Notes: generated by a model not told the origin, from the sequence alone. DNA of 32,000 bases from Dickeya dadantii NCPPB 898 (GCF_000406145.1 NZ_CM001976.1:997263-1029262), one strand, 5' to 3'; positions 1 to 21,658 are shown, counted from the first letter of the stretch. Program-made: numbers and translations.

Positions 1-1161
1 ACCGACACCGTGACCTACACCGTCAGCGACGGCGCCGGCGGGGTGGCGACCGGGACGCTGACCATTACCGTCACCGCGGTGAATGACGCCCCGGTGGCCG
101 GCAAGGATACCGCCACCACACGCCAAGACACTCCGGTCACCGTCGATGTGCTGGCGAACGACAGCGATGTGGACGGCAATCCGCTGACGGTGACCGCCGC
201 CAGCGCCGGCAACGGCTCGGTGGTGATCAACGCCGACGGCACGCTGACCTACACGCCGAATGCCAACTTTAACGGTACCGATACGGTGACCTACACCGTC
301 AGCGACGGACAGGGTGGCGTGGTGACCGGCACGCTGACCATTACCGTCACCGCGGTCAACGACGCGCCTGAAGTGATCGGTGAGACCACGTTAAATACGT
401 CAGTGAATACCCCGGTATCGGTCAATGTGCTGGATAACAGCCGCGATGTGGACGGCGACCCGCTGACCGTCACGTCGATATCGGTTACCAACGGCAGGGT
501 GCTGGTTAACGCCGGCGGCATGATGACTTACATACCCAACCCCGGTTTTAGCGGGACGGATGTGGTCAGTTATACCCTCAGCGACCCGCAGGGCAGTACG
601 GTGCGCGGTACGCTGACGGTAGTGGTCAGCACGTTACCGGGAACGGATGGTAATACGGCGGGCGGCGGAGCGGGGCAGATGAACTATGTGCCGCCGCCGG
701 ATAATGCCGGCTTGCAGCCCACGTTCATACCGGGACGGTTGAGCGCGGAAATGGAGGCAAGAGAGTATGACCCGATATTGCTGGACGCCGTGAACGCGAT
801 CAAAGGATTGGGCGGCAGCGCGCAACTGCTCGGCAATCAGCCGGGTGACCAGGCTGTTGCCGGCGTGAAGTCGCTGGGCACCAGCAGCGGGCTCGATTTG
901 TCACAAGGGAGTATTACCCAGGTGGTCCGCGATTTTGAACCAACCAGGACATTTGAGTTTTTGAATGATGCGCAGAATCAGCCGGTAACCAACCCGGCAA
1001 CACTCGGTGAAGGGATACCCATCGGGCCTGAAACCGCACAGAACAATAACACGACGATACCCGCGCAGGATGAACCCGCTGTCACGGTAGAGCAGCAATT
1101 GCAGACCATTGCGATGCGTGAACAGCAAGCATTGAGGGATCTTATCCGTGCGTTGAGTTAA
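1..1161 (+). CDS. C-terminal part of a very large tandem-repeat adhesin/exoprotein (cadherin-like, 'tandem-95'-type repeats); 5' end lies outside the window
   Basis: Frame +1 is open from base 1; the track ORF merely starts at an internal GTG at 10. Units TYTVSDGxGGVxTGTLTITVTAVNDAP...DTPVTVDVLANDSDVDGNPLTV recur every 92 codons. A non-repetitive tail of about 175 aa follows. Stop TAA 1159-1161. Confidence 0.85.
   Translation, partial: TDTVTYTVSDGAGGVATGTLTITVTAVNDAPVAGKDTATTRQDTPVTVDVLANDSDVDGNPLTVTAASAGNGSVVINADGTLTYTPNANFNGTDTVTYTVSDGQGGVVTGTLTITVTAVNDAPEVIGETTLNTSVNTPVSVNVLDNSRDVDGDPLTVTSISVTNGRVLVNAGGMMTYIPNPGFSGTDVVSYTLSDPQGSTVRGTLTVVVSTLPGTDGNTAGGGAGQMNYVPPPDNAGLQPTFIPGRLSAEMEAREYDPILLDAVNAIKGLGGSAQLLGNQPGDQAVAGVKSLGTSSGLDLSQGSITQVVRDFEPTRTFEFLNDAQNQPVTNPATLGEGIPIGPETAQNNNTTIPAQDEPAVTVEQQLQTIAMREQQALRDLIRALS
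10..640 (+). repeat. In-frame 276-bp tandem repeat units inside the adhesin gene (units 10-285 and 286-561, plus a diverged partial third)
   Basis: GTGACCTACACCGTCAGCGACGG...ACGCTGACCATTACCGTCACCGCGGT occurs at 10 and again at 286. The protein-level periodicity is 92 aa. Confidence 0.85.
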
Positions 1162-1173: not shown

Positions 1174-2700
1174 ATGCCTGATTTTATTAAACAATCTGTT
1201 TTGGCGTCTTTTGCTGTCTGGGGAGTGGTGACGATTACCGGGTGTGCGGTGACGTCGCCGCCGATTGATACCGATAAACAAACCTGGGGCGCGTATGACC
1301 GCATCAATGAGATCGTGTCCCGTGATGAACCGGTTTCGGGGCCGATTTCATTGTATGAAGCGATGGCGCGTGCGTTGAAATACAACCTCGACCAGAAAAT
1401 CGAACTGATGGATGAGGAGTACAAAAGCAAACTCAGCGAACTGGGAAGGCTTGGCATGTTTCCGTCGGTGGTGGCGTCGGTGGGCGGCAGTCAGCGCAAT
1501 AATGACTCCGGCTCCAGCAGCCGTTCATTGATCGACGGCAGCCAGTCGTTGCAATCGTCGACCTCTTCGGAACGGCGTACCTATACCGCTCAACTGGCGG
1601 CCAGTTGGGATATTCTGGATTTCGGCCTGTCCTATATTCAGAACAAACAGAATGTGGACGAGCAATATATTTCCCAGGAGCGGCGACGTAAGGTCATCAG
1701 CCGTATTCTGGAGGATGTGCGTACGGCTTACTGGCGGGCGGTCAGCGCCGACCGCACCCATGAAAAACTGATCAAACTGGAGGCGCTGGCGCAGAAAACC
1801 CTATACCAGTCCGAACAACTGGCGAAACGGCGCAACGTGTCGCCGCTAAAGGTGCTGAATTATCAGCATGACCTGCTGGAGATTCAGGCGAATGTGCAAC
1901 GCATGCAGCGTGAATTGTTTTTTGCCAAAAAGCAGCTGGCGGCGCTGATTAACCTGAAACCCGAAACACCGTTTAAACTGGTTCTGCCGGACCGGACAGC
2001 CGTCGTGCCGGAATTACCCGGTTCGGCGGAACAGATGATATTAATTGGATTGAAATACCGCTCCGAATTGCGTGAATCCAGTTATCGAAAACGAATCAAT
2101 GACAATGAGTTGACGAAACAATGGGTCCGCAATTTACCGTCATTTAAAACGTTATTGGGCATGAATTACGACACCAATAAATATCTCTATAACAATGAAT
2201 GGGCGAATTTCTCCGGCACGGTCAGCTGGAATTTGATGAATGTGTTCAGTTATCCGATGCAACGTAAGGTGGTGCAGGCCGAAGCGAAAGTGATTCAGGC
2301 ACGTGAGGATGCGCTGATAATGGCTATTCTTACGCAAATCTATGTCTCCAGAGCGCGTTTTATCCGCCTGTCTCAGGAATTAAATACGGTGCGCCAGAGC
2401 CATGAGGTTCAGGACAATATATTGGAATTAACCCGTGCCGGTTTTCAGGGAAAAATCATCAGCCAGATGGATCTGGTACAGGTCGAGATGAAAACCATCC
2501 TGGATGAGGTGCGCTACGACACCGCCTATGCCGATTTGCAAAATGCTTATGCCAATCTGTATGCCTCAATGGGTATCGATAATTTTGATTCTGACATTAC
2601 TGAAAAGGATTCCGTCTCCAGTATCGCGAAAAAACTCCAGTTTTATTGGACGGAAGAAATTACCACCTTACCGGAAGTATCAAGGCGGGAAAATCCATGA
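1174..2700 (+). CDS. TolC/OMF-family outer-membrane channel lipoprotein
   Basis: 508 aa. Signal peptide with lipobox ITG|C (MPDFIKQSVLASFAVWGVVTITGC). OMF-like blocks include SLYEAMARALKYNLD and AQLAASWDILDFG. Starts 12 nt after the adhesin stop, and its TGA overlaps the next ATG (ATGA at 2697-2700). Confidence 0.8.
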   Translation: MPDFIKQSVLASFAVWGVVTITGCAVTSPPIDTDKQTWGAYDRINEIVSRDEPVSGPISLYEAMARALKYNLDQKIELMDEEYKSKLSELGRLGMFPSVVASVGGSQRNNDSGSSSRSLIDGSQSLQSSTSSERRTYTAQLAASWDILDFGLSYIQNKQNVDEQYISQERRRKVISRILEDVRTAYWRAVSADRTHEKLIKLEALAQKTLYQSEQLAKRRNVSPLKVLNYQHDLLEIQANVQRMQRELFFAKKQLAALINLKPETPFKLVLPDRTAVVPELPGSAEQMILIGLKYRSELRESSYRKRINDNELTKQWVRNLPSFKTLLGMNYDTNKYLYNNEWANFSGTVSWNLMNVFSYPMQRKVVQAEAKVIQAREDALIMAILTQIYVSRARFIRLSQELNTVRQSHEVQDNILELTRAGFQGKIISQMDLVQVEMKTILDEVRYDTAYADLQNAYANLYASMGIDNFDSDITEKDSVSSIAKKLQFYWTEEITTLPEVSRRENP

Positions 2701-3722
2701 AAAACTGCCAACCTATTCTTATTTGTATGCTTGCCGCCCTGTCGTTTTCCGCCCACGGCGTTGGGCCGGAAAACAATAGTCTGGAAAACAATAGTCTGGA
2801 AAACAATAGTCTGGAAAACAATAGTCCGGAAAACAATAGACCGGAAAACAGTAGACCGGAAAACAGTAGACCGGAAAACAGTGGGCCGGAAAAAAATAGG
2901 GCGGTGATGAAGGGGAATTCCCGTGCGGTATTATCGGGTAACCGGGCTTTCGCTGAAGATAATGGCGTTTATCAGGCGCACGGTATTTTGCGGGCGATAA
3001 ATCGAGCCACGCTCTCTTCGGAACTGGGCGCTCAGGTATTACAAATTCCGTTTCGCGAAGGGATGGCGTTTAAAAAAGGTGACCTGCTGGTCGGGTTTAA
3101 TTGTGATCGTCCCCGTGCCGAGGCGGACGCGGCCAATGAAGAGGTGAAGGTAAAAAAGAACGCCTGGGACACCAATATCGAGCTGGATAAATTCCAGTCG
3201 GTGGGGCGTTATGATTTGCTCACCTCGCAGGCGGAATACAATCAGGCGGTCGCCAAAGCACGCGGGCTGGCGATTCAAATCAGTTATTGCGACATTCGCG
3301 CGCCTTTTTCCGGCGTGGTGCAGGAACTGAAAGTCTCGCCGTTTGAAGCGGTTTCGGTCAGCCAGCCGTTGATTACCATTGTGGACCCGAGCGCGCTGGA
3401 ACTGAACGTGATCGTGCCGTCTTCGTGGTTGAACTGGTTGAAAACCGATATTCCGCTCCAGTTTATGGTGGATGAAACCCAGTCGGCTTATCAGGGCCAT
3501 GTCACTCAGGTGTTGCCGCAAATCGACGCGGTGAGCAAGACGGTAAAAATTATCGGCAAACTGGATGCCGACGCATTGGACCCCAACGTGTTTGGCCCCG
3601 GTATGAGCGGCTCAGTCATGTTTAAACAGCCGGTCATCGCTAAACAGTCGGCCATCTCTAAACCGTCGGTCATCTCTAAACCGTCGGTCATCTCTAAACT
3701 ACAGGGGGACGGCGATGAATAA
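2697..3722 (+). CDS. Periplasmic HlyD/MFP-type adaptor with Sec signal peptide and low-complexity repeat linkers
   Basis: ATG at 2697 gives MKNCQPILICMLAALSFSAHG (signal peptide, no lipobox). Lipoyl-like motif GILRAINRATLSSELGAQVLQIPFREGMAFKKGDLLVGF, a short coiled-coil hairpin, then IRAPFSGVV. The track start at 2646 lies inside the upstream gene and was not used. Confidence 0.8.
   Translation: MKNCQPILICMLAALSFSAHGVGPENNSLENNSLENNSLENNSPENNRPENSRPENSRPENSGPEKNRAVMKGNSRAVLSGNRAFAEDNGVYQAHGILRAINRATLSSELGAQVLQIPFREGMAFKKGDLLVGFNCDRPRAEADAANEEVKVKKNAWDTNIELDKFQSVGRYDLLTSQAEYNQAVAKARGLAIQISYCDIRAPFSGVVQELKVSPFEAVSVSQPLITIVDPSALELNVIVPSSWLNWLKTDIPLQFMVDETQSAYQGHVTQVLPQIDAVSKTVKIIGKLDADALDPNVFGPGMSGSVMFKQPVIAKQSAISKPSVISKPSVISKLQGDGDE
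2766..2900 (+). repeat. Nine tandem 15-bp units (CYGGAAAACARTAGN) coding (P/L)ENN(S/R)/PENSR pentapeptides
   Basis: Units read directly at 2766, 2781, 2796, 2811, 2826, 2841, 2856, 2871 and 2886. In frame, immediately after the predicted signal peptide. Confidence 0.95.
3624..3695 (+). repeat. Four tandem 18-bp units coding KQPVIA/KQSAIS/KPSVIS/KPSVIS at the adaptor C-terminus
   Basis: AAACAGCCGGTCATCGCT, AAACAGTCGGCCATCTCT, then AAACCGTCGGTCATCTCT twice; the last two units are identical. Confidence 0.9.
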
Positions 3723-5079
3723 TACGATCCCCGCACAAGGCAATAACAATACTGCGCCGCTGGGGCAACTGGCGCTGCCCGCGTTGAAGCTGTTGCAGTT
3801 TGAAGCGGCGATCAGAAAGCTGGCGGATGAGCGAATCATGAAAGCGCATATCGCCAATGCGGTGCGCCAACTGCTGCCTTATGAACAGGCGATTGTCTGG
3901 CAGCGCAATCAGTTCTCCGGCAAATTGCGCGTAGTACAGATATCGGACGTCAAGGGCGTGGAACGCAAAGCGCCGCTGTTGCTGGCGCTGGAGCGGTTCC
4001 TCAATAAAAAAGGCCAGGCGCTGGAAGCGTGCCGGGTGCTGAATTTGCAACAGTCTCCGGAAGCCGAACTGAAAAACTATCCGTTGCAGCATGGCTTGTG
4101 GTTGCCGCTCGGCTACCGGGAACAACCGGAGGCCGGCGTGCTGTACCTGCGTAGCGAGCAGGATTTTAATGAAGCCGAGCAGTCGCTGGCGCTGCGCCTT
4201 TCCGAAACTTACACCCATGCATGGCTGGCGTTGCGGCGCGAGCCGCGGCTGTCGCAGGGGACGCGGCTGCTGCGTCACTGTTTGTGGCTGGTGCCGGCGA
4301 TTCTGGCGGCGGGCGGGTTTATTCCGGTGCCGCTCAGCGTGGTAGCGCCGGTGGAGGTGATCGCCCGCGAACCTTACCGCCTGACCGCGCCGATCGATGG
4401 CGTGGTGCGCCAGATTCTGGTCGCGCCCAACAGCCAGGTGGCGTCCGGAACATCGCTGGTGCAGTTCGAAGATCTGAAACCTTACAACGAGATGGTGCTG
4501 GCCGGGCAGGAGCTGGCGGTGGCGGAAGCGCACAGCGGCCAGGTCAACGCCTCGGCGTTTGAGGATGAAAAATTCCGTCAGGAGATGGCGGTGGCCAGCA
4601 CCGAATACCTGCTGGCGAGGGGGCGCTATCAGTACATGACGGACATTTACCAGCGTACCAAAGCCGTTGCGCCGCAATCCGGCATCGCCATCTATACCAA
4701 TAAGCGCGACTGGGAAGGCAAAACCGTGCGGGTGGGCGAGGAGATCATGCAGGTGGCGGACCCGCGGAAGATCCAGTATCAGATTGCGCTGCCGGTCAAT
4801 GACAGCATTCACCTGAAAGCCGGCGACCGGATCCGGATTTTTCTCGACAGTTCGCCGTTGAAATCCTACAACGCCACGTTGACCACGTTCAGTTATACCC
4901 CGCAAGTCACGCCGGAAGGCGTCAGCAGCTATACGCTGCTGGCCGAGGCGGATAGCGATGACGTTTACCCGCGTATCGGCGCCCGGGGAACCGCGCGCAT
5001 CTACACGGAAGACGTGCCGCTGTGGTTTCAGCTGTTGCGCCGTCCCATTGCCTCGGCCAGGCAGTTTCTGGGGGTGTGA
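3715..5079 (+). CDS. Inner-membrane-anchored HlyD-family adaptor with a cytoplasmic N-terminal domain of about 180 aa (GAF-like by eye)
   Basis: 454 aa. One TM segment (LLRHCLWLVPAILAAGGFIPV). Lipoyl-like motif LTAPIDGVVRQILVAPNSQVASGTSLVQFED, a coiled-coil stretch and a beta-barrel-like C-terminus. The start overlaps the upstream stop by 8 nt (ATGAATAA). Confidence 0.8.
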   Translation: MNNTIPAQGNNNTAPLGQLALPALKLLQFEAAIRKLADERIMKAHIANAVRQLLPYEQAIVWQRNQFSGKLRVVQISDVKGVERKAPLLLALERFLNKKGQALEACRVLNLQQSPEAELKNYPLQHGLWLPLGYREQPEAGVLYLRSEQDFNEAEQSLALRLSETYTHAWLALRREPRLSQGTRLLRHCLWLVPAILAAGGFIPVPLSVVAPVEVIAREPYRLTAPIDGVVRQILVAPNSQVASGTSLVQFEDLKPYNEMVLAGQELAVAEAHSGQVNASAFEDEKFRQEMAVASTEYLLARGRYQYMTDIYQRTKAVAPQSGIAIYTNKRDWEGKTVRVGEEIMQVADPRKIQYQIALPVNDSIHLKAGDRIRIFLDSSPLKSYNATLTTFSYTPQVTPEGVSSYTLLAEADSDDVYPRIGARGTARIYTEDVPLWFQLLRRPIASARQFLGV

Positions 5080-5081
5080 AG

Positions 5082-7163
5082 ATGCTTGACGACAGCACGG
5101 CGCTGCCCCGTTTACGTCAGGAACTGCAGCTGGAATCCAGCCCCGGCAACGACGGGGAGATGAGCTGGCGCATTTACGATCCCTGGCAGCATCGTTTCTT
5201 CCAGTTGCCGGAAAGTGATGTGATGCTGCTGTCCCGGCCCGGCTGCCGTACCATCGGCCAACTGAAACCGCTGCTGGATTTGCACGGGCTGCGTTTCGAT
5301 ATGGAGCAGTTCGGCTCGCTGACGCTGTTTCTGCGCCAGCAGCATCTGTTGATGGCGCAGGACTACGCGGCATCGGCGGAAGAAAAGCCCAAGGCGCTGT
5401 TGCTGCGCAAACCCAGCGTCCGGCAATTGCCGTTATGGGACCCGATGCCGCTGTTGCATCTGGTGGCCGGACACCATCTGCGCTGGCTTACCCGCGCGTT
5501 GTTGACGCTCTGGCTGCTAGTCACGCTGGTCGGGCTGTATCTGACCGCCAGACAGTGGGACAGCTACCTCGCCACTTTTCGGGATTTCTATTCGTTACAG
5601 GGCGTGCTGGGGTTTGGCGTGGCGATCCTGTTTCTGAAGTGGTTTCACGAAATGGGACATGCCTTTGTGGCGTATCGTCAGGGATGTCGGGTCGGAAAAA
5701 TGGGCATTTCCCTGTTTGTTATCTTTCCGATGTTTTATACCGATCTGACCGACGCGGCGCGGGTGGTCCAGCCGCGTCGCCGGATGTGGATTGCGCTGGG
5801 CGGCGTGGGGGCCGAGACGCTGATTGCCGGTTTGGCTACCGCGGGGTGGGCGTTGTTGCCGCCGGGCACGCTGCGCTCCATCTGCTTTGTGCTGGCGACC
5901 ACCAGTTGGGTGACGACGCTGGCTATCAACCTCAATCCGTTTTCCCGTTTTGACGGTTACTACTTTTTAAACGATCTGACCGGGGTGGATAACCTACAGC
6001 CGCGCTCGCGCTCGCTGCTCAATTATTACTGGCACCGGTGGGTACTGGGGCCGGTGCTGGACAAGCCGGAGCCGGTGGGCGGTCTGCGCCCCAAGCTGAT
6101 GGCGCTGTATGGCCTGCTGGTGCTGGCGTACCAAATGTTTCTGATTCTGGGCATCGGCTATCTGGCTTACCGGTTTTTCATCCCGCTCATCGGGATACTG
6201 ATATTCGCTTACATCCTTTATCACTATCTGCTGCTGCCGCTTGTGCTGATGGGGAGAGATATGGTTCGACATCGGGAGAAAATCACCTGGAGACGCAAAC
6301 TGGTGCTGACGTTGCTGCCGTTCGTGGCGATAGGGGCCTTTTTTTGCCCGCTTCCCCGCACGGTGAATATCCCCGCCATGGTGAATATTCAGGGGCAAAC
6401 CCTGATTCACGCACCGGATAAAGCGAAGCTGGAAACGGTCGCCATCGGTAATGGCGACCGGGTGCGGCAGGGGCAGGTGCTGCTGCGTTTTTCCTCGCCG
6501 GAACTCACCTTCCAGCGCGAGCAGGCGATGATGGAGCATGACCTGATGCAATTCCGGCTCAACCGCATCAGCAGCTCCGAGGCGGAAAAACTGGAAACCG
6601 TGACGCTACGGCAGAAATTGCAGGAAGCGGAAGAAACACTGGCCGGGCTGGATAACCAACTGGCGCAACTGGTCTGGCGTTCGCCTGTCGATGGCGTGGT
6701 GGTGGATCTGCTAGCCAACCTACAGCCGGGGCAGTGGTTCTCGCCGGATCAAATCATCGGCCGGATTCTGGAGGGCGACAAACAGGACATCATTGGCTAT
6801 GTGGATGAAACCTTTGTTTCCCGTCTGTCGCCCGACCTGCGCGGCAAGTTTATCCCCAATAACCTGTCGATGCCGTCCCAGCCGGTCAAAGTTGAACAGT
6901 TGGATCCGAACAGTTCCGAATTTATTACGCCCAAATCCCTGAGTGTTCTGTACGGCGGGCCGATCGCGTCGCTGAAAAATGATAAAGGGGACGCGGTGCC
7001 GGTGGTGGCGATGCACCGAATACAGTTTTTGTTTAGCGACGCCAGCCTGCCCGATCGGCAGGCGTCGCAGGGGGTGGTGGTGTTGCGGCTGGCGCCGGAG
7101 AGCCTTGCCAGCCAGTCGGGAAAACGTTTGTGGCGTTTGATTATTGCCGAACTTAACCAGTAA
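5082..7163 (+). CDS. Fusion protein: cytoplasmic PqqD/RRE-like N-domain + polytopic M50 (site-2 protease family) zinc metalloprotease + C-terminal HlyD-type adaptor domain
   Basis: ATG 5082 lies 2 nt after the upstream TGA. HExxH = HEMGH (5646-5660). Second M50 motif NLNPFSRFDG (5928-5957). Multiple hydrophobic TM segments. After the last TM comes a lipoyl-like motif (LIHAPDKAKLETVAIGNGDRVRQGQVLLRFSSPEL), a coiled coil, then RSPVDGVVVDL. Confidence 0.8.
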   Translation: MLDDSTALPRLRQELQLESSPGNDGEMSWRIYDPWQHRFFQLPESDVMLLSRPGCRTIGQLKPLLDLHGLRFDMEQFGSLTLFLRQQHLLMAQDYAASAEEKPKALLLRKPSVRQLPLWDPMPLLHLVAGHHLRWLTRALLTLWLLVTLVGLYLTARQWDSYLATFRDFYSLQGVLGFGVAILFLKWFHEMGHAFVAYRQGCRVGKMGISLFVIFPMFYTDLTDAARVVQPRRRMWIALGGVGAETLIAGLATAGWALLPPGTLRSICFVLATTSWVTTLAINLNPFSRFDGYYFLNDLTGVDNLQPRSRSLLNYYWHRWVLGPVLDKPEPVGGLRPKLMALYGLLVLAYQMFLILGIGYLAYRFFIPLIGILIFAYILYHYLLLPLVLMGRDMVRHREKITWRRKLVLTLLPFVAIGAFFCPLPRTVNIPAMVNIQGQTLIHAPDKAKLETVAIGNGDRVRQGQVLLRFSSPELTFQREQAMMEHDLMQFRLNRISSSEAEKLETVTLRQKLQEAEETLAGLDNQLAQLVWRSPVDGVVVDLLANLQPGQWFSPDQIIGRILEGDKQDIIGYVDETFVSRLSPDLRGKFIPNNLSMPSQPVKVEQLDPNSSEFITPKSLSVLYGGPIASLKNDKGDAVPVVAMHRIQFLFSDASLPDRQASQGVVVLRLAPESLASQSGKRLWRLIIAELNQ

Positions 7164-7202
7164 TTGAGCTTAACCAGTAATTGACATTGACCAGTAACGC
7201 GG
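7152..7202 (+). repeat. 17-bp tandem triplication spanning the stop codon of the M50-adaptor gene
   Basis: CTTAACCAGTAATTGAG / CTTAACCAGTAATTGAC / ATTGACCAGTAACGCGG. The first unit contains the codons LNQ and the stop. Confidence 0.8.
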
Positions 7203-7211: not shown

Positions 7212-8198
7212 ATGACATTGACTCGACGTGCATTTCTGGCAGGTGCCTCTGCCTGCATGGTGGCGCCCTGGTTAGGCACGAGGGCCGCGGAAACTGCGCC
7301 GTCCGGCGAATTGATCTTCGGATATGGTAAAACCGGGATTGGCAGCGCGCTGGCGGAAGATACCGTGGCGTTGCTGGCGCAATCCTATCAGCAGAATCGT
7401 TACCAGTTGGTCAATATCCCCAGCGGGAACAGCCTGCGCGCCGTTTCGACGGTTAAACACGCCGTCCCCGACGGCCGAACGCTGTTGCAGGCCCAGTCGC
7501 CGCAGATGAATCTGCTGCCGGTGATCTACCGCAGTTTGCCGTATGACCCGCTCATGGATTTCGAGCCGCTGGCGCTGATGGGGGAATACACCTTGTTTCT
7601 GACCGTCGGCAAGCTGGTAGACCCACGAGTCAAAACGCTGGATGACTACCTAAGCTGGGTGGAAAGGAACCCGGAATACCGTAATGTCGGTTTTACCCAG
7701 TTCGGCTCGACCGGCCATATCGCACAGGCGATTCTGGCGCGTCAAAAAGGCGTGGCTCTCCAGCCGGTGGCCTACTTTGGTTCTTCGATGATGATCGAGG
7801 ATTTACTGAATGGTTACCTCTCCGCCGGGCTGGTGATTTCGGGTAATGCCTCCGGCGCGTTTCGACGTGGTCGCCTGCGTGCGGTCGCCGCTACCAGCAC
7901 CGAACGTCATCCCGGCTGGGAAGATATTCCGACCTGCAAGGAGCAGGGCGTGCCGGGAATGGCGATTAACGGCTGGTACGGCTGGTTTGCGCCGGCCTCA
8001 ATGCCCGACCGCATCTACGCGCCGCTGGCCGAGGCGTTACAACAGCGCATTCAGCATGAGCATTATGCCTCTGTACTGGAGCGCTATTCGCTGAAACCGG
8101 TGTCGTCGTCATCCCCCGACAGGATTCGGGAACGTATCCGCGATGAGCAGGAACACTACCGTGAATTGGTCGACAGTTATCACATCAGCCGGATCTGA
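7212..8198 (+). CDS. Bug/TctC-family (tripartite tricarboxylate transporter-type) periplasmic binding protein with twin-arginine signal peptide
   Basis: 328 aa. MTLTRRAFLAGASACMVAPWLG carries a Tat motif T-R-R-x-F-L. SD GGGAGGGGGA sits upstream. TctC-like blocks include VPDGRTLLQAQSP, LQPVAYFGSS, GRLRAVAATS and INGWYGWFAPASMP. Confidence 0.75.
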   Translation: MTLTRRAFLAGASACMVAPWLGTRAAETAPSGELIFGYGKTGIGSALAEDTVALLAQSYQQNRYQLVNIPSGNSLRAVSTVKHAVPDGRTLLQAQSPQMNLLPVIYRSLPYDPLMDFEPLALMGEYTLFLTVGKLVDPRVKTLDDYLSWVERNPEYRNVGFTQFGSTGHIAQAILARQKGVALQPVAYFGSSMMIEDLLNGYLSAGLVISGNASGAFRRGRLRAVAATSTERHPGWEDIPTCKEQGVPGMAINGWYGWFAPASMPDRIYAPLAEALQQRIQHEHYASVLERYSLKPVSSSSPDRIRERIRDEQEHYRELVDSYHISRI

Positions 8199-8248
8199 TG
8201 CGAGGCTGCTGTGATGGAACATCCGTAAATCGATTGGGAGACGAACCT

Positions 8249-9235
8249 ATGGCTATGACCCGGCGAACATTTCTGGCGGGCTGCTCTTCGCTGCTACTCC
8301 CCGCGCTGTATTCGCGTGGACCCCTGGCCGCCGCGCCGCAGGAAGGCGTGGTGATGTTTGGCTATGCCCAGACCGGGTTGGGCAGCAAGGTGGCGACCGA
8401 GGTGTCGGTATTGCTGGAGTCTCAATATCGCGAGCGACGTTACCGGTTGTATAACGAACCCGGCGAAAACAGTATCAGGGCGGTGATGTCGACGAAGAAA
8501 TCGCCTGGTGATGGCGGCGTACTGCTGATGGCGCAATCGCCGCAGCTGATTATATTCCCGTCTATCTACAACCGCTTGCCCTACAATCCATTGACCGATT
8601 TCAAGCCGCTGGCGATAACCGGCGAATATACCTTGCTGCTGACGCTGGGGCCGATAGTCGATGCCAGGGTAAAAAGCCTGGACGATTATGTTAAGTGGGT
8701 GGAAAACAATCCGGAGTTCAGCAATATCGGCTTTGCCCAGTTTGGTTCTCCCGGCCACATGGCGCAACTGGTGCTCGGGCGCGAAAAGAACGTGGCGCTG
8801 CAACCGCAGTCTTACTATGGCACCTCAATGATTGTGGACGACCTGCTGAACGGGCATTTGGCAGCGGCGTTTTTGATTTCCGGCAACTCGCTCGATCTGT
8901 ATAAGAATGGCAAACTGCGGGCGATTGCCTCCACCAGCCGGTTGCGCCAGCCGGGGGTGGATGACGTGCCGACCTGCCGTGAGCAAGGGATTCCGTCGAT
9001 GAACATTAACGGCTGGTATGCCTGGCTGGCGCCGGCCAGCATGCCGGACCGTGTTTATCGCCCGCTGGCGGATGCGATGCAAAGAACCATCGTGAGCTAC
9101 GACTATCTGGAAATGCTGAGGAAATATTATCTGAAGCCGGTGTACGACAATCCCGATAAAATCCGCCAGCGAATTCAACAGGAGCAGGCATATTACGCCG
9201 AGCTTGTTGAGACGTATCGGGTGAGTAAAGTGTGA
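8249..9235 (+). CDS. Second Bug/TctC-family binding protein (tandem paralogue), twin-arginine signal peptide
   Basis: ATG 8249 is preceded by GGGAG 8 nt upstream. MAMTRRTFLAGCSSLLLPALYS. Collinear with the upstream paralogue, with more than half of positions identical by eye. Confidence 0.75.
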   Translation: MAMTRRTFLAGCSSLLLPALYSRGPLAAAPQEGVVMFGYAQTGLGSKVATEVSVLLESQYRERRYRLYNEPGENSIRAVMSTKKSPGDGGVLLMAQSPQLIIFPSIYNRLPYNPLTDFKPLAITGEYTLLLTLGPIVDARVKSLDDYVKWVENNPEFSNIGFAQFGSPGHMAQLVLGREKNVALQPQSYYGTSMIVDDLLNGHLAAAFLISGNSLDLYKNGKLRAIASTSRLRQPGVDDVPTCREQGIPSMNINGWYAWLAPASMPDRVYRPLADAMQRTIVSYDYLEMLRKYYLKPVYDNPDKIRQRIQQEQAYYAELVETYRVSKV

Positions 9236-10092: not shown

Positions 10093-10818
10093 ATGCAGGA
10101 AGACCGGTTCGATACGCCACCGGGAACAGCGGCCCCCGGTTTGATACGGCTGGAACAGGTTAGCCACGCTTATCCCTCCGCGGCGGCATCGCACCCGGTT
10201 CTGCATAATGTTTCCCTGCGGGTTGACGCGGGGCAGAGCTGCGCCATCGTTGGCGCTTCCGGCTCCGGGAAAAGCACGCTGCTGAACATTATCGGGTTGC
10301 TCGATAAACCCACGTCGGGGCGACTGTGGCTGAATGGCTGCGACATGGCGCAGGCCTCGACCGATGAACGCGCCAGAATACGCAACCAGACTATCGGGTT
10401 CGTTTTTCAGAGCTTTAATCTACTGCCGCGTCTTTCCGTGCTGGATAACGCGGCACTGCCGCTGCTGTATCGCGGTGACTCCCGCCGTGATGCCCATCAG
10501 GCGGCCAGACGGCAACTGGAGCGGGTTGGGCTGGCCGAGCGCCTCCATTACCGCCCGGCGGATCTGTCCGGCGGCCAGCGACAGCGCGTCGCCATCGCCC
10601 GCGCTCTCACCGGCGAACCGTCACTGTTGCTGGCCGATGAACCCACCGGCAATCTCGATAGCCAGACCGCCGGCGATATTCTGTCGTTGTTGCTGACGCT
10701 GAACCGGGAACAAGGGGTGACGTTGGTGATGGTTACGCATGACGAATCCATCGCCCGGCAGATGCAGCGTCGTATTCAGGTGAACGATGGCCGGGTTCAG
10801 GAATACAGTAATAGTTAA
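10093..10818 (+). CDS. ABC transporter ATP-binding protein, MacB/LolD-type stand-alone ATPase
   Basis: Walker A GASGSGKST, signature LSGGQRQRVAIARAL, Walker B LLLADEPTGNLD, H-loop VTHD. SD GGAG lies 5 nt upstream. Confidence 0.9.
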   Translation: MQEDRFDTPPGTAAPGLIRLEQVSHAYPSAAASHPVLHNVSLRVDAGQSCAIVGASGSGKSTLLNIIGLLDKPTSGRLWLNGCDMAQASTDERARIRNQTIGFVFQSFNLLPRLSVLDNAALPLLYRGDSRRDAHQAARRQLERVGLAERLHYRPADLSGGQRQRVAIARALTGEPSLLLADEPTGNLDSQTAGDILSLLLTLNREQGVTLVMVTHDESIARQMQRRIQVNDGRVQEYSNS

Positions 10819-10966
10819 ATATTTTTGTATGGTTACTGATTTATTTGTAAAGGTTTGGTCGGAGGAGTCGATATTGACTAGCGGCAGAGTTTCCGACTTA
10901 TTGCCTTATTTTATAAAGGATGCTGTCTTTTTTCGACAGCGTAAAACGAAACCAAGGGAGGTTTCC

Positions 10967-11374
10967 ATGAATCTTAAATCATTAAAAAAATTGTTTTTTG
11001 TTAGTGCCCTGGCTCTGGGCGCCGCTTCTCAGGCGAACGCGGCAAGCTGCGGTCCGACCCGTGTGACTGTTCCGGTAGCGGGAACGGTTGACCCTCAGAC
11101 AGAAGTGCAGATCTATTCCAAAACGTACAACTGCTCGGCATACCTGATGGCGTCTTTAACGCCGAATTTTGGTTCCTCTTCCGTTTCTCTGTCGTTGACG
11201 CTCAAGCTGTATCAGCAGGTGGGCGGAAGCTGGCGTAGCGTCAGCGAAGGCCGCAATGTTTCCTATCAGATGGGCAGCACCGGCGGTACTTACAAACTGG
11301 TCGTATTCAATAGCAATACCAGCGGTAACGCCCTTAACTGGACCGGAAACTATAAATCCCCTCTCAACAACTAA
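10967..11374 (+). CDS. Small Sec-secreted beta-rich protein (mature form about 110 aa, two Cys), PPC-domain-like by eye; function unknown
   Basis: ATG 10967 has a strong SD (AAGGGAGG). Signal peptide MNLKSLKKLFFVSALALGAASQANA|A. The upstream extension of the track ORF (10787) overlaps the ATPase gene and lacks an SD. Confidence 0.7.
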   Translation: MNLKSLKKLFFVSALALGAASQANAASCGPTRVTVPVAGTVDPQTEVQIYSKTYNCSAYLMASLTPNFGSSSVSLSLTLKLYQQVGGSWRSVSEGRNVSYQMGSTGGTYKLVVFNSNTSGNALNWTGNYKSPLNN

Positions 11375-11389
11375 TTGACAGGGAAATGG

Positions 11390-11417
11390 CCCACACCATT
11401 TCTCACAAAGGTGTGGG
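11390..11417 (+). other. Hairpin just after the small-protein gene (8-bp stem CCCACACC/GGTGTGGG, 12-nt loop), possible attenuator or mRNA-stabilising element
   Basis: Inverted repeat read directly. No U-tract follows, so this is not a canonical terminator. Confidence 0.3.
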
Positions 11418-11713
11418 TCAGTTAACAGCACGAATCAGGGAGGATACCGTGAGCATTCAAATTTCATCCGTGGCGGCGCAAAGACCGTGGCGGCGTAAAA
11501 ACCATGTGCCGGGCGGTTCTCTCGCTGGTTTCTGTCTCTTGCGTGGTGACGGAAAAACCCGTTTCCTGATGCGATAAAGGCTCAGCACTTGTGTTAAAGC
11601 GCGACAGCGACGGAGACTACGCTAAAGGGATACATTCCGCGAAACCGCCGGAAGAACGGAACGCGTCTTTTTCTGGAGTCGCTCATTCACCCTACGGCGC
11701 TTCTCTGCGTTAC

Positions 11714-12883
11714 ATGCTGACCGAACCGCTGGATAGCCTGCGCCAGCTAGGGCGACGGGCGGTGCTGGCGTTGCTGGGCATCACGGTGGGCTGTGCGGCG
11801 GTGGTGGCGTTGCTGAACATTGGCCACAACGCGGCGGCGGACGCCATCCGCGCCTTTCACGATATGGGCAGCGATATGCTGGTCGCCGGCTTTGACGACA
11901 CGGCGGAAACCAACCAACGCCGTGTGCCCGCCACGCTGGATATCGACGCGCTGACCCGCGCCTTGCCTGGCATCCGACACGCCGCGCCGCTTATTCTCAC
12001 CTCGACCAATGCCCGCCTGCATCGACGTCAATTTAATGCCATTGTGGCCGGTGCCGGCGCTGAACTGGCGCAGGTACTGGCGTTGCAGGTCGCGCATGGC
12101 CGCTTCCTGACCCGATACGATCGTCAGAGCACCTACGCCGTGCTCGGCGCGAAAACGGCGGTCGAACTGGGCGAGGCCGGTACGCCGGCGACGCTTGGCA
12201 GCCGGATACAACTTCGCGGCTATCTGTTTGAAGTGGTAGGAATTTTAAAAGAGCAGGGGCAAAATCCGCTGCTTCCGGTGCCGGTGGACGAAGCTATCAT
12301 CTTGCCTATCGAAGGAATGCACCGTCTTCTCCCTTCTCCTGAAATCAGCAGCGTGGTGGCACGCAGCCGTCGTAGCGAGACGCTGCAGCAAGAGGCGGCA
12401 GCGTTGCGTGATTATCTAATGGCCCTGGCGCCGGGACGCGAGGTGTCGGTGCAACTCTCCCAACAACTGTTGGAAGGCATGGCGCGGCAGTCGCGCACCT
12501 TTACCTGGTTACTCGCCGGATTGGGCGGCATTTCGCTGCTAATGGGGGGCGTGGGCGTGATGAACGTGATGGTGATGAACGTTGCCGGGCGGCGGCGAGA
12601 AATCGGCGTGCGCATGGCGCTGGGCGCTCGCCCAAAAGATATTGGCCGCCTGTTTCTGCTGGAAGCGGCGGCGTTGGCGATCGCCGGCGCGCTGGCCGGC
12701 GCGATTGTCGGCCTGCTCACCGCCTGGTTGTTTGTGAAAATGTCCGGCTGGATTTTTTCGTTATCCCCGCTGTCGTTGCCTTTGGGCATTATCAGTTCAC
12801 TGGCGGTCGGGGTGTTCTTTGGTCTACATCCCGCCCTGACGGCGGCCCGGCTGGAACCTGTAAAGGCGCTGCGTGATGATTAA
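11714..12883 (+). CDS. ABC transporter permease, MacB/FtsX family with large periplasmic domain
   Basis: MLTEPLDSLRQLGRRAVLALLGITVGCAAVVALL is a typical MacB-type N-terminus and TM1. A periplasmic domain of about 220 aa follows, then a C-terminal FtsX block (RRREIGVRMALGARPKDIGRLFLLEA). The start is uncertain: the ORF is open from GTG 11591. Confidence 0.85.
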   Translation: MLTEPLDSLRQLGRRAVLALLGITVGCAAVVALLNIGHNAAADAIRAFHDMGSDMLVAGFDDTAETNQRRVPATLDIDALTRALPGIRHAAPLILTSTNARLHRRQFNAIVAGAGAELAQVLALQVAHGRFLTRYDRQSTYAVLGAKTAVELGEAGTPATLGSRIQLRGYLFEVVGILKEQGQNPLLPVPVDEAIILPIEGMHRLLPSPEISSVVARSRRSETLQQEAAALRDYLMALAPGREVSVQLSQQLLEGMARQSRTFTWLLAGLGGISLLMGGVGVMNVMVMNVAGRRREIGVRMALGARPKDIGRLFLLEAAALAIAGALAGAIVGLLTAWLFVKMSGWIFSLSPLSLPLGIISSLAVGVFFGLHPALTAARLEPVKALRDD

Positions 12884-14342
12884 AACGGTTGCCCTCGTCC
12901 TGTTGCTGCTGGTCGGTCTGGATGCGTCCGCGGCGCTGACCGACCGCTTGCTGCCTTCTCAGGCTACCCGTGCGGGCAGCAGCACCTTGTCGCCCAACGC
13001 GCAGATTATCGACCTGACGTTAAGCGACGCCATCTACCTTGGCTTGCGCGATAACCGCGCCATTCGTAGCGCCTATCTGGATCGCGTCGCGCAGAAGTTT
13101 GATCTGCTGGTGGCCGAAGACCGCTTTACCCCCAAGCTGGTGTTGAGCGGCAGCTATCTGGCGGCGCGCAATCAGGATGATCGCTACCGCCAGGGCGAAA
13201 TCGCGCCCACCACCACGCTGCTGACGCCTTATGGCACCCGCGTGAGCCTGGCCTGGACGCACCGCTCCAAGCAGGCGGATGAAGCCGGTCGTACCCGCAA
13301 TGACGGCGCTACGATCACGGTTATCCAGCCGTTGCTGCGCGGCGCAGGTAAGGAGATAGCCACCGCGCCGGTGCGGCTGGCAAAGCTGTCCGAACAGATC
13401 AACCGGCTGACGCTGAAAGCCACCGTCGCGCGGACTATCACCCAAATCATTATGGCTTATCGGGCGTTGTTGCAGGCGCAGGAGCAATTGAACATCGCCG
13501 ATGAAGCGCTGGCGCGCTCACGTCAGTTGCTGGAGGTGAACCGCTCGCTGATCGCCGCCGGGCGCATGGCTGAATTCGAAATCATCCAGACGGAAGCGGA
13601 TGTCGCGACTCAGGAGCTATCCCGTGAGGAAGCGCTCAATCAGCTTGACGTTAGCCGTCTGGCGCTGCTGCAACTGCTGGCGCTGGATTTGCGCACGCCG
13701 GTCCGTGCGACCGAACGGCTACAGGCCAGTCGCGTCGACGTCAGCCCCGCCGCGGCGCTGTCTCAGGCCGAGGCGCTGCAACCCGCCTACCTTACGCAGT
13801 TGATCGTCGATAAACAGGCCGACATTAATCTGGCGGTGGCGCGCAATGACCGCCTATGGGATGTGTCGCTGGTGGGGGGAACCAACCAGCTGCGCGATCG
13901 CAGCAGCACGGTGGGCAGCTCGCGCAACTGGGAGAACTATGTCGGCGTGCAGGTGGACATTCCCATCGGCGATATGAGCCAACAGCAGGCGGAAGTGCAG
14001 GCGCGGGTTAACGTGCAGAATCAACGCATTCAGCTTGCCGAAACCCGCCAGCAACTGGAGCGCGACGTCGCCAACGCCGTGCGTGATATCAGCACCCGCT
14101 GGCGCCAGTTTGAGATTGCCCAGCGCGCGCGGGATCTTTCGCGTCGCAAGCTGGAGATCGAACGGGAAAAGCTCACCGCCGGGCGCTCCAGCAACTTTCA
14201 GGTGCTGAGTTTCGAAACCGATCTGCGTAACGCCGAAAACGCCCGGCTCAGCGCCCTGATTACCTATCTCAACACCCAGGCCGATCTGGATCAAACGCTG
14301 GGTACGACGCTGCAAAGCTGGGATATCTCACTCAATGATTAA
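12876..14342 (+). CDS. TolC/OMF-family outer-membrane channel protein
   Basis: Signal peptide MIKTVALVLLLLVGLDASA. OMF N-terminal block LTLSDAIYLGLRDNRAIRSAY. Overlaps the permease stop by 8 nt. Confidence 0.85.
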   Translation: MIKTVALVLLLLVGLDASAALTDRLLPSQATRAGSSTLSPNAQIIDLTLSDAIYLGLRDNRAIRSAYLDRVAQKFDLLVAEDRFTPKLVLSGSYLAARNQDDRYRQGEIAPTTTLLTPYGTRVSLAWTHRSKQADEAGRTRNDGATITVIQPLLRGAGKEIATAPVRLAKLSEQINRLTLKATVARTITQIIMAYRALLQAQEQLNIADEALARSRQLLEVNRSLIAAGRMAEFEIIQTEADVATQELSREEALNQLDVSRLALLQLLALDLRTPVRATERLQASRVDVSPAAALSQAEALQPAYLTQLIVDKQADINLAVARNDRLWDVSLVGGTNQLRDRSSTVGSSRNWENYVGVQVDIPIGDMSQQQAEVQARVNVQNQRIQLAETRQQLERDVANAVRDISTRWRQFEIAQRARDLSRRKLEIEREKLTAGRSSNFQVLSFETDLRNAENARLSALITYLNTQADLDQTLGTTLQSWDISLND

Positions 14343-15627
14343 TCTTTCACGATACCGGCAACGTCCGCTACGCCAGCGCGCGGCGCTGATGATCGCCCTG
14401 GCGCTGGGCGCGGCGGCGATGGTCTGGAAGTTATGGCCGACAACCACCAGCGCCATGCCGCAGACACAATGGCTACGGGTTGAGCCACAGGTGCTGGAAA
14501 ACCGTCTGGGGCTGACCGGGCGGATTCAGGCCGCCGCGACGCTGACGCTCTCCGCGCCGTTTGACGGCATGATCAAAGACGTGCTGGTCAATGAAGGGCA
14601 ACGTGTGGAAGCGGGTCAGCCGCTGCTGACGCTGGACACCGGCCTGCTGGATATCCAACTGCGTCAGGCGCTGGCCGATTTGCTAAAAGCGCAGCGCACG
14701 GTGCAGGACATGCAACACTGGGAGCAAGGTCAGGAGGTGGCGCGGGCGCGACGCACCCTGAATAACGCGCGTATCAGCCTGGCGAACACCGAGGCCAACC
14801 TGAAAGATACCCGCACCCTGTTTGAGCGCGGCATCGTAGCCAGAATGGAAGTCGACGCGCTGGCTCAGCAGGCTCAGGCGCAGCGGCTGGATTTGTCCGC
14901 CGCGCAGGATGAATTACAGGCGGCGCTGGACCGCGGGCGTGGTGAAAACCGTCAGATCGCCGAGATGGAACTGGCTAATGCTCAATCGCGCCATCAAACG
15001 TTGATGGCGATGCAGGCGCAACAGGTGGTGCGCGCGCCGTTTGCGGGTGTACTGGTGCGCCCCGCCGCGCCGGAAACCGATAAACGCCAGCCATTACAGC
15101 CGGGGATACGAGCCAGTCAGGGAATGCCGCTGTTCGGACTGATCAATCCCGACCAGTTACAGGTCATCGCCAGTCTTGAAGAGGCCGATCTGCATCAGTT
15201 GCATGAAGGCATGCCGGTGGACATCAGCGGTGACGGCTTTGCCGGGCTGACGCTGTCCGGCCATATTCAGACCATCGGCAGTGAAGGGCGCGCCGCCGAC
15301 GTGGCCGGTGCCAGCGCCCGCTACGATGTGCTGGTCACTATTGCTACTCCACCAGCGGAACAGCGCCAGCGCCTGCGGTTAGGGATGAGCGCCCGGCTGT
15401 CGGTGGTCACGTATCGTAACGAGCATGGCACCGCTGTTCCTGCCGAGGCGTTGCACACGGACGAGGCCGGCAACAGCTATGTTCTCTTCCGTCAGGATAG
15501 CGATAGCGCGCCGCAACGGCGTACGGTAGTGCCGGGCGTTGCGGTGCCGCAGGGCGTGGAAGTGAAAGGATTATCCGATGGTCCGGGGTTCGTCGAAATC
15601 ACCAATAACAGCGGCGTTGCTGAATGA
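14335..15627 (+). CDS. HlyD/MacA-type membrane-fusion (periplasmic adaptor) protein
   Basis: N-terminal TM (AALMIALALGAAAMVW). Lipoyl-like motif LSAPFDGMIKDVLVNEGQRVEAGQPLLTLD, a long coiled coil, then VRAPFAGVLV. ATG overlaps the OMF stop (ATGATTAA). Confidence 0.88.
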   Translation: MINLSRYRQRPLRQRAALMIALALGAAAMVWKLWPTTTSAMPQTQWLRVEPQVLENRLGLTGRIQAAATLTLSAPFDGMIKDVLVNEGQRVEAGQPLLTLDTGLLDIQLRQALADLLKAQRTVQDMQHWEQGQEVARARRTLNNARISLANTEANLKDTRTLFERGIVARMEVDALAQQAQAQRLDLSAAQDELQAALDRGRGENRQIAEMELANAQSRHQTLMAMQAQQVVRAPFAGVLVRPAAPETDKRQPLQPGIRASQGMPLFGLINPDQLQVIASLEEADLHQLHEGMPVDISGDGFAGLTLSGHIQTIGSEGRAADVAGASARYDVLVTIATPPAEQRQRLRLGMSARLSVVTYRNEHGTAVPAEALHTDEAGNSYVLFRQDSDSAPQRRTVVPGVAVPQGVEVKGLSDGPGFVEITNNSGVAE

Positions 15628-15705: not shown

Positions 15706-16233
15706 CTATCTCGTCAGTTCCCATTCATCAAACTGTTTATTAATGTCTTTAATCGAGGCGAGTCTGATTTTGGGTAGGGTCAACGCGTCAAACAGCTCAG
15801 CATAGTGTTTCCTGTTTTTAGGCGTGACGGCGGCAATATGATGGAACATTTTCCAGTTCAGCCGGTCTATCCCCCCTTCCAGAGCACCATAGCGCTGGTA
15901 TTGAAATAGCGTTCGGTTCACATAGCGCAGTAAGCTCGACAGCGTGGAGACATCCAGCAGAATAAGCCCCGTGGCGCGAGACAAACGCTGTGGCAGGCAT
16001 CTTTTGTAATTGCCATCGATGACCCAACTCTCTTTATTTATTGCCATATCATGCAATAAAAGGAACTCATGGAAAGGGCGTTCTTGCCAGTTTGAGTGCG
16101 GGACATGAAAAAGTTGGTCCAGATGGATAACGTCCAGGTTACGTTTCCGCGCAATCGCATTCGCAAGGGTAGATTTACCGCTGTTCGATGGCCCCATAAT
16201 GCAAATTCTGTCGCCTAAATCTGAAAGCTTCAT
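15706..16233 (-). CDS. P-loop NTPase, adenylate-kinase/topology-modulation (FlaR)-like small kinase
   Basis: Walker A in ICIMGPSNSGKSTLANAIARK. ATG 16233 is preceded by GGAGAAG. The longer track ORF starting at 16302 has no SD. Confidence 0.65.
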   Translation of the reverse strand: MKLSDLGDRICIMGPSNSGKSTLANAIARKRNLDVIHLDQLFHVPHSNWQERPFHEFLLLHDMAINKESWVIDGNYKRCLPQRLSRATGLILLDVSTLSSLLRYVNRTLFQYQRYGALEGGIDRLNWKMFHHIAAVTPKNRKHYAELFDALTLPKIRLASIKDINKQFDEWELTR

Positions 16234-16456
16234 CGTCTTCTCCATACCGCGTGGTGTCTGGTATTTGGGGGAGCGCGAACTGCCACCACGGCGATTTATC
16301 ATTTTAACGATCTCTCGCCTGTTCGGGTTGACGAAGTAGTAAAAGATTTTGAAAGTGAGGGGAACGTGGAAAAAATAAAGCAGCCTGGCGGTTGTATTGG
16401 TTGATGTAATACCTGATTGACGCGCGGGATGGTTTATCGTTATTCGTCCGTTTTAG

Positions 16457-16507: not shown

Positions 16508-16521
16508 ATTAATATATTGAT

Positions 16522-16559: not shown

Positions 16560-16568
16560 GTTTTTAGA

Positions 16569-17915: not shown

Positions 17916-17964
17916 TACGTTGCTCTAGACTGGGTTTGCTTTATCACAACCAAGGAAAACTATC

Positions 17965-21626: not shown

Positions 21627-21658
21627 TGTGTTCTTACTCATTTGTCGTTCTATGGACA

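Follow-up and report, generated by a model that had tools for sequence, protein, structure and literature searches.

An adaptor and outer-membrane module with a fused intramembrane protease and no transporter gene beside a giant adhesin gene of Dickeya dadantii

Gene content of the locus

We analyzed a window of 32,000 nt from Dickeya dadantii NCPPB 898 (GCF_000406145.1 NZ_CM001976.1:997263-1029262; "the window" denotes the whole of this stretch), in which positions 1174-7163 carry four genes that directly follow the 3' end of a gene for a giant repeat adhesin and that appear to form a TolC-type module with an intramembrane protease in the position of a transporter. The genes lie on the plus strand and encode, in order, a TolC-family outer-membrane factor (OMF; 1174-2700), two adaptors of the membrane fusion protein (MFP) type (MFP1, 2697-3722, and MFP2, 3715-5079), and an M50 zinc protease fused to a third, MacA-like adaptor (M50::MFP; 5082-7163). 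They are tightly coupled: 12 nt separate the adhesin stop codon (1159-1161) from the OMF ATG at 1174, OMF and MFP1 share an ATGA overlap (2697-2700), MFP1 and MFP2 overlap by 8 nt (3715-3722), and 2 nt (5080-5081) lie between the MFP2 TGA (5077-5079) and the M50::MFP ATG at 5082, a start that is backed by the alignment of homologs and by three of four genome annotations. A first-pass annotation of the locus had described this coupling and had named the products as a TolC-like lipoprotein, a signal-peptide adaptor, a membrane-anchored adaptor with a cytoplasmic N-terminal domain, and an M50 protease ending in a HlyD-type adaptor; every junction was found where it had been placed, and all four assignments are borne out by the profile searches and predicted structures described below. 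None of the four proteins exceeds the cut-off of any specific NCBIfam model, MFP1 alone passes the generic adaptor model for resistance-nodulation-division (RND) systems, and the names that databases give to homologs are generic.

The OMF has the two OEP repeats (PF02321, 4e-27, in two stretches) and the ITGC lipobox, read straight from the sequence, that place it in the TolC/NodT family. Its scores on the subfamily models TIGR01845 and TIGR01844 are far under cut-off, and it is thus a divergent member. The protein is identical in three complete Dickeya-type chromosomes, and its orthologs adjoin the giant gene or the adaptor genes in many taxa.

MFP1 combines an N-terminal signal peptide with matches to HlyD_3 (1.8e-15) and RND_mfp (96.5 bits; cut-off 94.9), and in other taxa its gene stands, without exception, directly upstream of MFP2 or of the giant gene. 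Two low-complexity tandem repeats run in frame through the Dickeya gene, one of 8.9 copies of 15 nt at 2766-2899 (ENNSL/ENSRP-type units) and one of 4.7 copies of 18 nt at 3615-3699 (SKPSVI units); the protein measures 315, 320, 330, or 341 aa in four Dickeya strains, which fits a change in repeat number.

MFP2 (HlyD_3, 4e-13) is 100% identical to a D. dadantii database protein. Its AlphaFold2 (AF2) model (pLDDT 87) has an alpha/beta cytoplasmic domain (residues 17-173) that a single membrane helix (184-200) links to a MacA-like adaptor (Foldseek match to MacA, 1.5e-16), whose alpha-hairpin spans 254-313, and the protein ends in a helix with a conserved RRPIxxxRQxxG pattern (alignment A2). The cytoplasmic domain had been guessed to be a GAF domain. 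The predicted alpha/beta topology is compatible with that guess; the sequence matches are weak, with 4 of 12 family members on Pfam GAF (best E 0.042), 2 of 12 on GAF_2 (best E 0.0081), and E 0.069 to the PDB GAF entry 3k2n. We refer to the domain as GAF-like.

In the fusion protein, HEMGH occupies residues 189-193 (nt 5646-5660) and NLNPFSRFDG residues 283-292 (nt 5928-5957), that is, the HExxH and NxxPxxxxDG motifs of M50 proteases, which close predicted helix 2 and predicted helix 4, respectively. Residues H189, E190, H193, N283, D291, and G292 are invariant in 22 homologs at 28-49% identity, and given this invariance among distant homologs M50::MFP is very likely an active protease. Pfam Peptidase_M50 (PF02163) scores 26.8 bits against a cut-off of 27.2, and most homologs carry a precomputed PF02163 match. 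The best named protease relative is the daptide intramembrane metalloprotease of NCBIfam, NF041824 (1e-33; 117 bits against a cut-off of 300), and RseP (7w6x, E 0.0097) and MjS2P (3b4r, E 0.014) are matched around HExxH. We regard the protein as an M50 protease by motifs and topology and not as an equivalog of the daptide protease, co-located precursor or modification genes being absent from the annotated contexts.

Hydropathy predicts seven membrane helices in an N-in/C-out arrangement that obeys the positive-inside rule, the Lys/Arg-rich loops being cytoplasmic. This topology would place the N-terminal domain and both motifs, at the ends of helices 2 and 4, on the cytoplasmic side and the adaptor in the periplasm. 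The AF2 model (pLDDT 84) starts with a β3α3 domain (16-86), continues in a membrane core of helices, and closes with a C-terminal adaptor (424-673) that has a predicted hairpin at 473-528. The adaptor matches MacA, MexA, ZneB, and EmrA (best Foldseek E 8e-14); a profile search also reached the fused TriAB structure 6vej (E 0.0012), and the profile of alignment A1 matches the HlyD chains 8dck and 7sgr. Foldseek searches were saturated by adaptor chains, so that their confirmation covers the adaptor halves and not the M50 core or the GAF domain. The first-pass annotation had guessed at PqqD, and the predicted order of strands and helices in the β3α3 domain fits PqqD/RRE; proof of that identity from the sequence was sought and not obtained, and a PDB sequence search with the domain gave no match.

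By eye, the sixth predicted helix (alignment A1, columns ~405-420) holds a membrane-embedded Glu in most sequences outside the Dickeya clade (VVEIAVF, LVELLWF), and the Dickeya-like clade has instead a His three positions later (YILYHYL). That this position could be protonated and take part in energy coupling is pure speculation.

Each of the three adaptors can be assigned with confidence to the MacA/MexA/HlyD type: MFP1 and MFP2 pass HlyD_3, and the C-terminal half of M50::MFP is under the Pfam adaptor cut-offs but MacA-like by Foldseek. They are barely alignable with one another (BLASTP E 0.001 for MFP1 against MFP2 and 0.011 for MFP2 against M50::MFP), and MFP1 and MFP2 each have recognizable orthologs beside the fusion gene across taxa. 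They look like old, specialized paralogs.

The window holds the last 383 codons of the adhesin gene (10-1161, plus strand). Their product matches Big_9 (1e-50), Cadherin_5 (9e-48), and tand_rpt_95 ("tandem-95" repeats, 8e-51) and continues in a non-repeat tail that closes with the helix EPAVTVEQQLQTIAMREQQALRDLIRALS, ending at 1158. Profile searches of these 383 residues gave no match to RTX-type or nonapeptide repeats, and the model for BapA/Bap/LapF-type large adhesins, NF045619, is matched weakly (1.9e-12, below cut-off). The N-terminus, which lies outside the window, contains LERRLMFDA, and DUF4347 (2e-44) comes after it. The full protein has 3195 aa in CP023467 and more than 4115 aa in CP077422, and in CM001982 the gene is present as three open reading frames (ORFs) of 769, 304, and 392 aa; this variation points to repeat-number change, plus pseudogenization or assembly collapse.

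Conservation and linkage to LEPR-tagged giant genes

The module is widespread. At least 594 species genomes carry it (one genome per species was scanned), and a profile search of 1.84 billion representatives returned 5,680 protein clusters at E ≤ 1e-30, and the top 150 all measure ~700 aa; full-length fusion homologs of this size occur in many Proteobacteria. Hosts are found among Alpha-, Beta-, and Gammaproteobacteria and in Nitrospira, examples being Pseudomonas, Stutzerimonas, Sphingopyxis, Hyphomicrobium, Achromobacter, Nitrosospira, and Nitrospira defluvii. For a forward survey, ORFs were called in 83 non-Dickeya genome loci and classified by phmmer with the window proteins as queries. 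The genes MFP1-MFP2-M50::MFP are contiguous in 73 of the 74 loci with enough upstream sequence. A giant repeat ORF adjoins the module in 64 loci and, among those with at least 9 kb on both flanks, in 43 of 46. The same five genes appear in the Pfam-annotated contexts of Pseudomonas sp. HR96, Stutzerimonas, and Sphingopyxis.

The gene set is kept and its order varies: we observed giant-OMF-MFP1-MFP2-M50, MFP1-MFP2-M50-(gap)-giant-OMF, OMF-MFP1-MFP2-M50-giant, OMF-MFP1-giant-MFP2-M50, and divergent arrangements. The fourth of these orders, in which the giant gene lies between MFP1 and MFP2, was seen in four metagenome loci (L092, L115, L131, and L148), and such an insertion is hard to explain without functional coupling. 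In P. thivervalensis (L047 12116-14991), genes for a GNAT acetyltransferase, an unknown 202-aa protein, and a sulfotransferase stand between M50::MFP and the giant gene; the same apparently holds for related Pseudomonas in which a similar gap of 3-4 kb is present, and the three products may modify the cargo.

The giant proteins are also alike at their N-termini. Without exception, the 52 giant ORFs for which the locus includes the N-terminus have LE(P)Rx(L/M/V)(F/L)D(A/G) ~25-35 residues from the start, and the 12 giants in which no motif is visible run off the edge of their locus. This motif matches the LEPR-XLL domain of NCBIfam (NF012209, ~24 residues), which scores 23.4 bits in Achromobacter, 16.8 in Pseudomonas, and 15.7 in a Nitrosospira metagenome-assembled genome (MAG; L071) against a cut-off of 17, and its core residues L, E, R, and D are invariant in alignment A4, Dickeya included. 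An Ala/Thr/Asp/Gln-rich linker follows and then, in most members (Halomonas, L057, is an exception), DUF4347. We considered a Sec or Tat signal on the adhesin and set it aside by eye: the ERRLMF of Dickeya resembles a twin-arginine motif, but most members have the single-Arg LEPR form and charged residues interrupt the stretch.

A reverse survey started from DUF4347 N-termini in metagenome contigs, a word-indexed protein search from the adhesin N-terminus having given 10 short fragments. Among 64 LEPR-positive DUF4347 giants the system was seen beside 29, with one clear negative for which there was a good view on both sides; among seven LEPR-negative DUF4347 proteins it was seen beside none, again with one clear negative (L152, a protein with a Sec-type signal peptide). 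All other loci were uninformative, the contig being short or the giant gene running off its end. Based on these counts, it is the LEPR motif, and not DUF4347 in itself, to which the system is linked.

DUF4347 itself (Dickeya copy, L003 401-1100; alignment A4) shows a His-Gly (SHG) and a Tyr-Gly-Cys (YGC) without variation, together with a DxAAS...D.TG..GG.W.LE pattern, and the Dickeya copy scores 24.0 bits on Peptidase_C80 (cut-off 23.8). These features suggest a clan-CD-like His/Cys autoprocessing domain placed just after the LEPR leader. Chain G of PDB entry 9qpe is a DUF4347 protein.

At the opposite end, the giants share an extreme C-terminal helix of the pattern P-x-(L/F)-x-x-Q-(L/I/V)-x(10-16)-L-x-x-A-L (window 1072-1158; L005, L006, L041, L047, L030, and others). 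It occurs in 22 of 56 distinct C-termini as against 0.6% of internal windows, figures that come from a pattern defined post hoc on related sequences.

In the loci surveyed, no exporter gene is conserved along with this set. Profile searches found none inside 1174-7163 and no ATP-binding cassette (ABC) domain there, no surveyed locus has an ABC match inside the adaptor block, and the module contains no exporter in the three Pfam-annotated contexts named above. The proposal of an operon that lacks a transporter, has the protease in its place, and probably has the adhesin for its cargo is therefore supported, and comparative genomics strengthens it considerably. A co-conserved ABC or RND gene was also looked for upstream: in Dickeya an AcrB-like RND gene lies a few kb upstream of the adhesin start, and it does not accompany the module in other taxa.

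A proposed export and processing apparatus

We consider it highly probable that the quartet and the adhesin are functionally linked and constitute one module, and we judge it likely that the module is the adhesin's export route. The reading that we favor with some confidence is that of a dedicated envelope-spanning, type-1-like, ABC-less apparatus that exports LEPR-XLL giant proteins and processes their N-termini. MFP1, MFP2, and the adaptor half of M50::MFP would assemble into a sleeve of mixed composition in the periplasm and dock there onto the private OMF. Adaptors and OMF most plausibly make up a duct for the adhesin from the periplasm to the outside; the TriA/TriB pair of TriABC-OpmH is a precedent for mixed adaptors. 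In the inner membrane, the seven-helix M50 domain and the MFP2 anchor would replace the motor, whether of the ABC, RND, or major facilitator superfamily (MFS) type.

The position of the protease site bears on what the protease may do. A cytoplasm-facing M50 site, the β3α3 domain beside it, and a conserved cargo motif together argue for the recognition and cleavage of an N-terminal leader. The LEPR-XLL motif is the likely recognition element: the β3α3 domain would capture the LE(P)RxxFD(A/G) segment of the adhesin, the zinc site would cleave the leader, and a cytoplasmic ligand may control these steps through the GAF-like domain of MFP2. There are precedents for leader cleavage in SpoIVFB acting on pro-sigma-K, in M50 leader peptidases acting on precursors of ribosomally synthesized and post-translationally modified peptides, and in the C39 domains of peptidase-containing ABC exporters acting on double-glycine leaders. 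We rate cleavage of the LEPR leader by the M50 domain at slightly below an even chance. The first-pass annotation had put forward proteolysis-coupled release or export. An adhesin cargo is supported; release needs qualification, since a cytoplasmic site favors leader processing at the inner face over periplasmic release of the LapG type.

How the chain would be moved is more speculative. It may pass through the adaptor/OMF duct, and it could be driven by translation itself, which would feed it in as it is made, by the proton-motive force, or by a ratchet in the form of calcium-dependent extracellular folding of the cadherin-like repeats; any statement on the energy source or on the direction of transport is speculation at this stage. 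That export needs no ATP-driven transporter seems to us evenly balanced between true and false. The fully specified version, in which an M50-adaptor oligomer, two adaptors, and the private OMF recognize and cleave the LEPR-XLL leader and conduct the giants out without an ABC, RND, or MFS motor, by co-translational drive or an extracellular folding ratchet, is offered tentatively, and we incline to doubt that it holds in every part.

Among known systems, the module is most like the type 1 secretion systems (T1SS) for giant adhesins (LapA-LapBCE, SiiE-SiiCDF, HlyBD-TolC). It shares with them a TolC-family OMF, an anchored HlyD-like adaptor with a cytoplasmic N-terminal domain (MFP2), and a giant repeat adhesin from the same locus as cargo, for which cadherin/Ig-like repeats are typical. 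It fails their defining test because no ABC transporter of the HlyB type is encoded with the adaptor. Unlike them, it has three divergent adaptors rather than one and an M50 protease fused to an adaptor, and its cargo has an N-terminal LEPR-XLL motif and no detected RTX repeats. Peptidase-containing ABC exporters (PCAT; for example, colicin V CvaAB-TolC) likewise fuse a peptidase, on the cytoplasmic side, to an export component that works with an adaptor and TolC. Their peptidase, however, is a C39 cysteine protease on the ABC transporter, whereas that of the module is an M50 metalloprotease on an adaptor with no ABC domain, and their cargo is a small peptide whereas that of the module has 3,000 to >6,000 residues.

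The YydH/daptide protease (NF041824), SpoIVFB, and RseP resemble the module in that their membrane helices hold HExxH and NxxPxxxxDG and their site faces the cytoplasm; they also remove an N-terminal pro-segment or leader, which for the module is a proposal. M50::MFP differs from such leader peptidases and site-2 proteases in scoring under their family cut-offs, in its extra membrane helices and its C-terminal periplasmic adaptor, and in having an OMF and adaptors as partners in place of ABC exporters or modification enzymes. As a case of non-equivalent adaptors that share an operon and are needed for a single duct, TriABC-OpmH, a two-adaptor RND pump of Pseudomonas aeruginosa, comes closest; it has an RND transporter and exports a small molecule, whereas the module has three adaptors and no transporter gene. 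Finally, LapD/LapG acting on LapA also pairs a protease that works on the N-terminal end of a giant adhesin with a cytoplasmic sensor domain on a membrane protein. LapG, however, is a cysteine protease of the periplasm, and the ligand of LapD is cyclic di-GMP, whereas the protease of the module is an intramembrane metalloprotease that faces the cytoplasm and its sensor-like domain is weakly GAF-like.

Several observations weigh against the export reading. Three Pseudomonas loci have the adaptors and no giant gene within 10 kb, and beside one LEPR-positive giant (L135) the stretch from -9.9 to +4 kb is free of the system. The N-terminus of the Dickeya adhesin scores 12.5 bits, below the cut-off of 17 of the LEPR-8K model. 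PqqD (PF05402) matches 1 of 15 members of the fusion family, at E 0.074, so that the assignment of the β3α3 domain as a leader binder comes from predicted topology only. The check for MFS and other transporter classes covered the Pfam-annotated contexts. According to the review PMC8277102, every characterized TolC-dependent machine has an energized inner-membrane partner; none was found linked to the module, and an unlinked ATPase beyond local synteny is possible. The shared C-terminal helix could be a type-1-like signal, which would argue for C-first transport.

This last point leads to the strongest alternative, retention and release on a type-1-like pathway. Here, an unlinked ABC transporter would export the giant C-terminus first, M50::MFP and MFP2 would hold its LEPR/DUF4347 end as a tether or plug, and M50 cleavage, possibly under control of the GAF-like domain, would release it, which amounts to a cytoplasmic-side analog of LapD/LapG acting on LapA. 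The C-terminal helix and the weak NF045619 match speak for it, as do the cytoplasmic N-terminal domain that MFP2 has in common with HlyD and the placement of the M50 site on the side where an N-terminal tail would stay. Type 1 systems normally have their ABC gene next to the adaptor gene, and no linked exporter-type ABC gene was found in the genome or metagenome loci checked; in the last 383 residues, moreover, no RTX nonapeptide repeats were detected. C-first post-translational export would also be ill-suited to LEPR-tagged proteins of >20,000 residues (bioRxiv 10.64898/2026.03.19.712371). We hold retention and release to be unlikely, yet worth keeping in view.

Far less probable is a role in the maturation and export of a small ribosomal peptide or bacteriocin, with the M50 domain as a YydH/daptide-type leader peptidase and the adhesin nearby by accident. 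This explanation can draw on NF041824 as the best named relative of the protease, on the label "putative peptide zinc metalloprotease protein" that homologs carry at JGI, and on the predicted PqqD/RRE-like topology of the N-terminal domain. The NF041824 score is far under its cut-off, however, the annotated contexts contain no precursor-peptide or modification-enzyme genes, and the gaps within the module are too small for another gene; the near-universal linkage to LEPR giants, including the giant inserted between MFP1 and MFP2, would also go against it. More remote still is small-molecule or metal efflux or envelope maintenance, with an unlinked pump or TctC proteins and an M50 domain engaged in site-2-protease-like signaling, since the best adaptor scores on RND/MacA-type models, the TctC genes that follow the module in Dickeya and three other lineages, and the MacB-type pump 3 kb downstream in Dickeya are offset by the absence of TctC and MacB genes beside most family members, by the MacB system's own adaptor and OMF, and by the strict link to LEPR-tagged giants, which this explanation leaves unaccounted for.

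We found no published description of the module in open-access papers and bioRxiv, and the first-pass annotation likewise knew of no experimental description; apparent mentions of "M50" in efflux reviews proved to be residue numbers or DOI strings. The one relevant text is a 2026 preprint (bioRxiv 10.64898/2026.03.19.712371), in which two Chlorochromatium giants on either side of a TolC-like gene are noted to have LEPRxLL N-termini and are said to be without known transport signals. The module thus appears to be a widespread, uncharacterized variant of TolC-dependent envelope machines, with an intramembrane protease in the motor position and dedicated to LEPR-tagged giants. If the export reading is true, the fused protease would be an inner-membrane partner of a new class, and secretion might be powered or coupled in a new manner; LEPR-tagged giants would gain a concrete route of export that can be tested, and the version without a motor would account for the export of giants of up to tens of thousands of residues. 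The hosts include genetically tractable plant pathogens and root colonizers (Dickeya dadantii, Pseudomonas fluorescens, P. brassicacearum, and P. syringae groups), in which the adhesins are probably relevant to attachment.

Neighboring genes and base composition

Two genes for TctC-family periplasmic binding proteins (7212-9235, plus strand; TctC 2e-31 and 6e-27) follow M50::MFP and are probably co-transcribed. No terminator-like site was found between 7163 and 7212, in scans for promoters and terminators that gave no more sites than shuffled sequence. Outside Dickeya, the module is followed by TctC genes in Pseudomonas sp. HR96, which has four, in a betaproteobacterial MAG, and in Pelomonas (L005 12157-16279; L008 4347-5438; L041 12050-13057). 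The lineages that bear them are the closest to Dickeya, and most other family members are without TctC; we regard these genes as an accessory linked to the module in the Dickeya-like subclade only. A direct repeat of 2.7 copies of 17 nt at 7152-7197 (CTTAACCAGTAATTGAC) copies the last codons and the stop of M50::MFP into the 48-nt spacer before the first TctC gene.

A complete MacB-type tripartite exporter lies 3 kb downstream of the module (10093-15627) and is present in all four Dickeya loci. It comprises a LolD/MacB-type ATPase (10093-10818), a MacB_PCD+FtsX permease (11591-12883), and an OMF (12873-14342) and adaptor (14335-15627) of its own; between ATPase and permease, a 135-aa signal-peptide protein without a family match (10967-11374) is a possible cargo. 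We rejected this system, as we did the AcrB-like gene upstream of the adhesin, as a partner of the module, since neither accompanies it outside Dickeya. Two ABC genes near the module in other hosts were likewise rejected as exporters. The one in P. thivervalensis stands beside an NMT1-type binding protein and so belongs to an importer, and the one in Nitrospira defluvii, with BPD_transp_1 and TOBE, belongs to a molybdate/sulfate-type importer, the other flanking genes there being unrelated.

Against a background of 55-62%, the G+C content of the window dips to 37-49% at 2001-3000, 16001-18000, 20001-22000, and 31001-32000. The dip inside the operon covers the 3' end of the OMF gene and the 5' end of MFP1, and other dips cover islands with a choloylglycine-hydrolase-family gene (16569-17642) and a Fic-domain gene (20484-21626).

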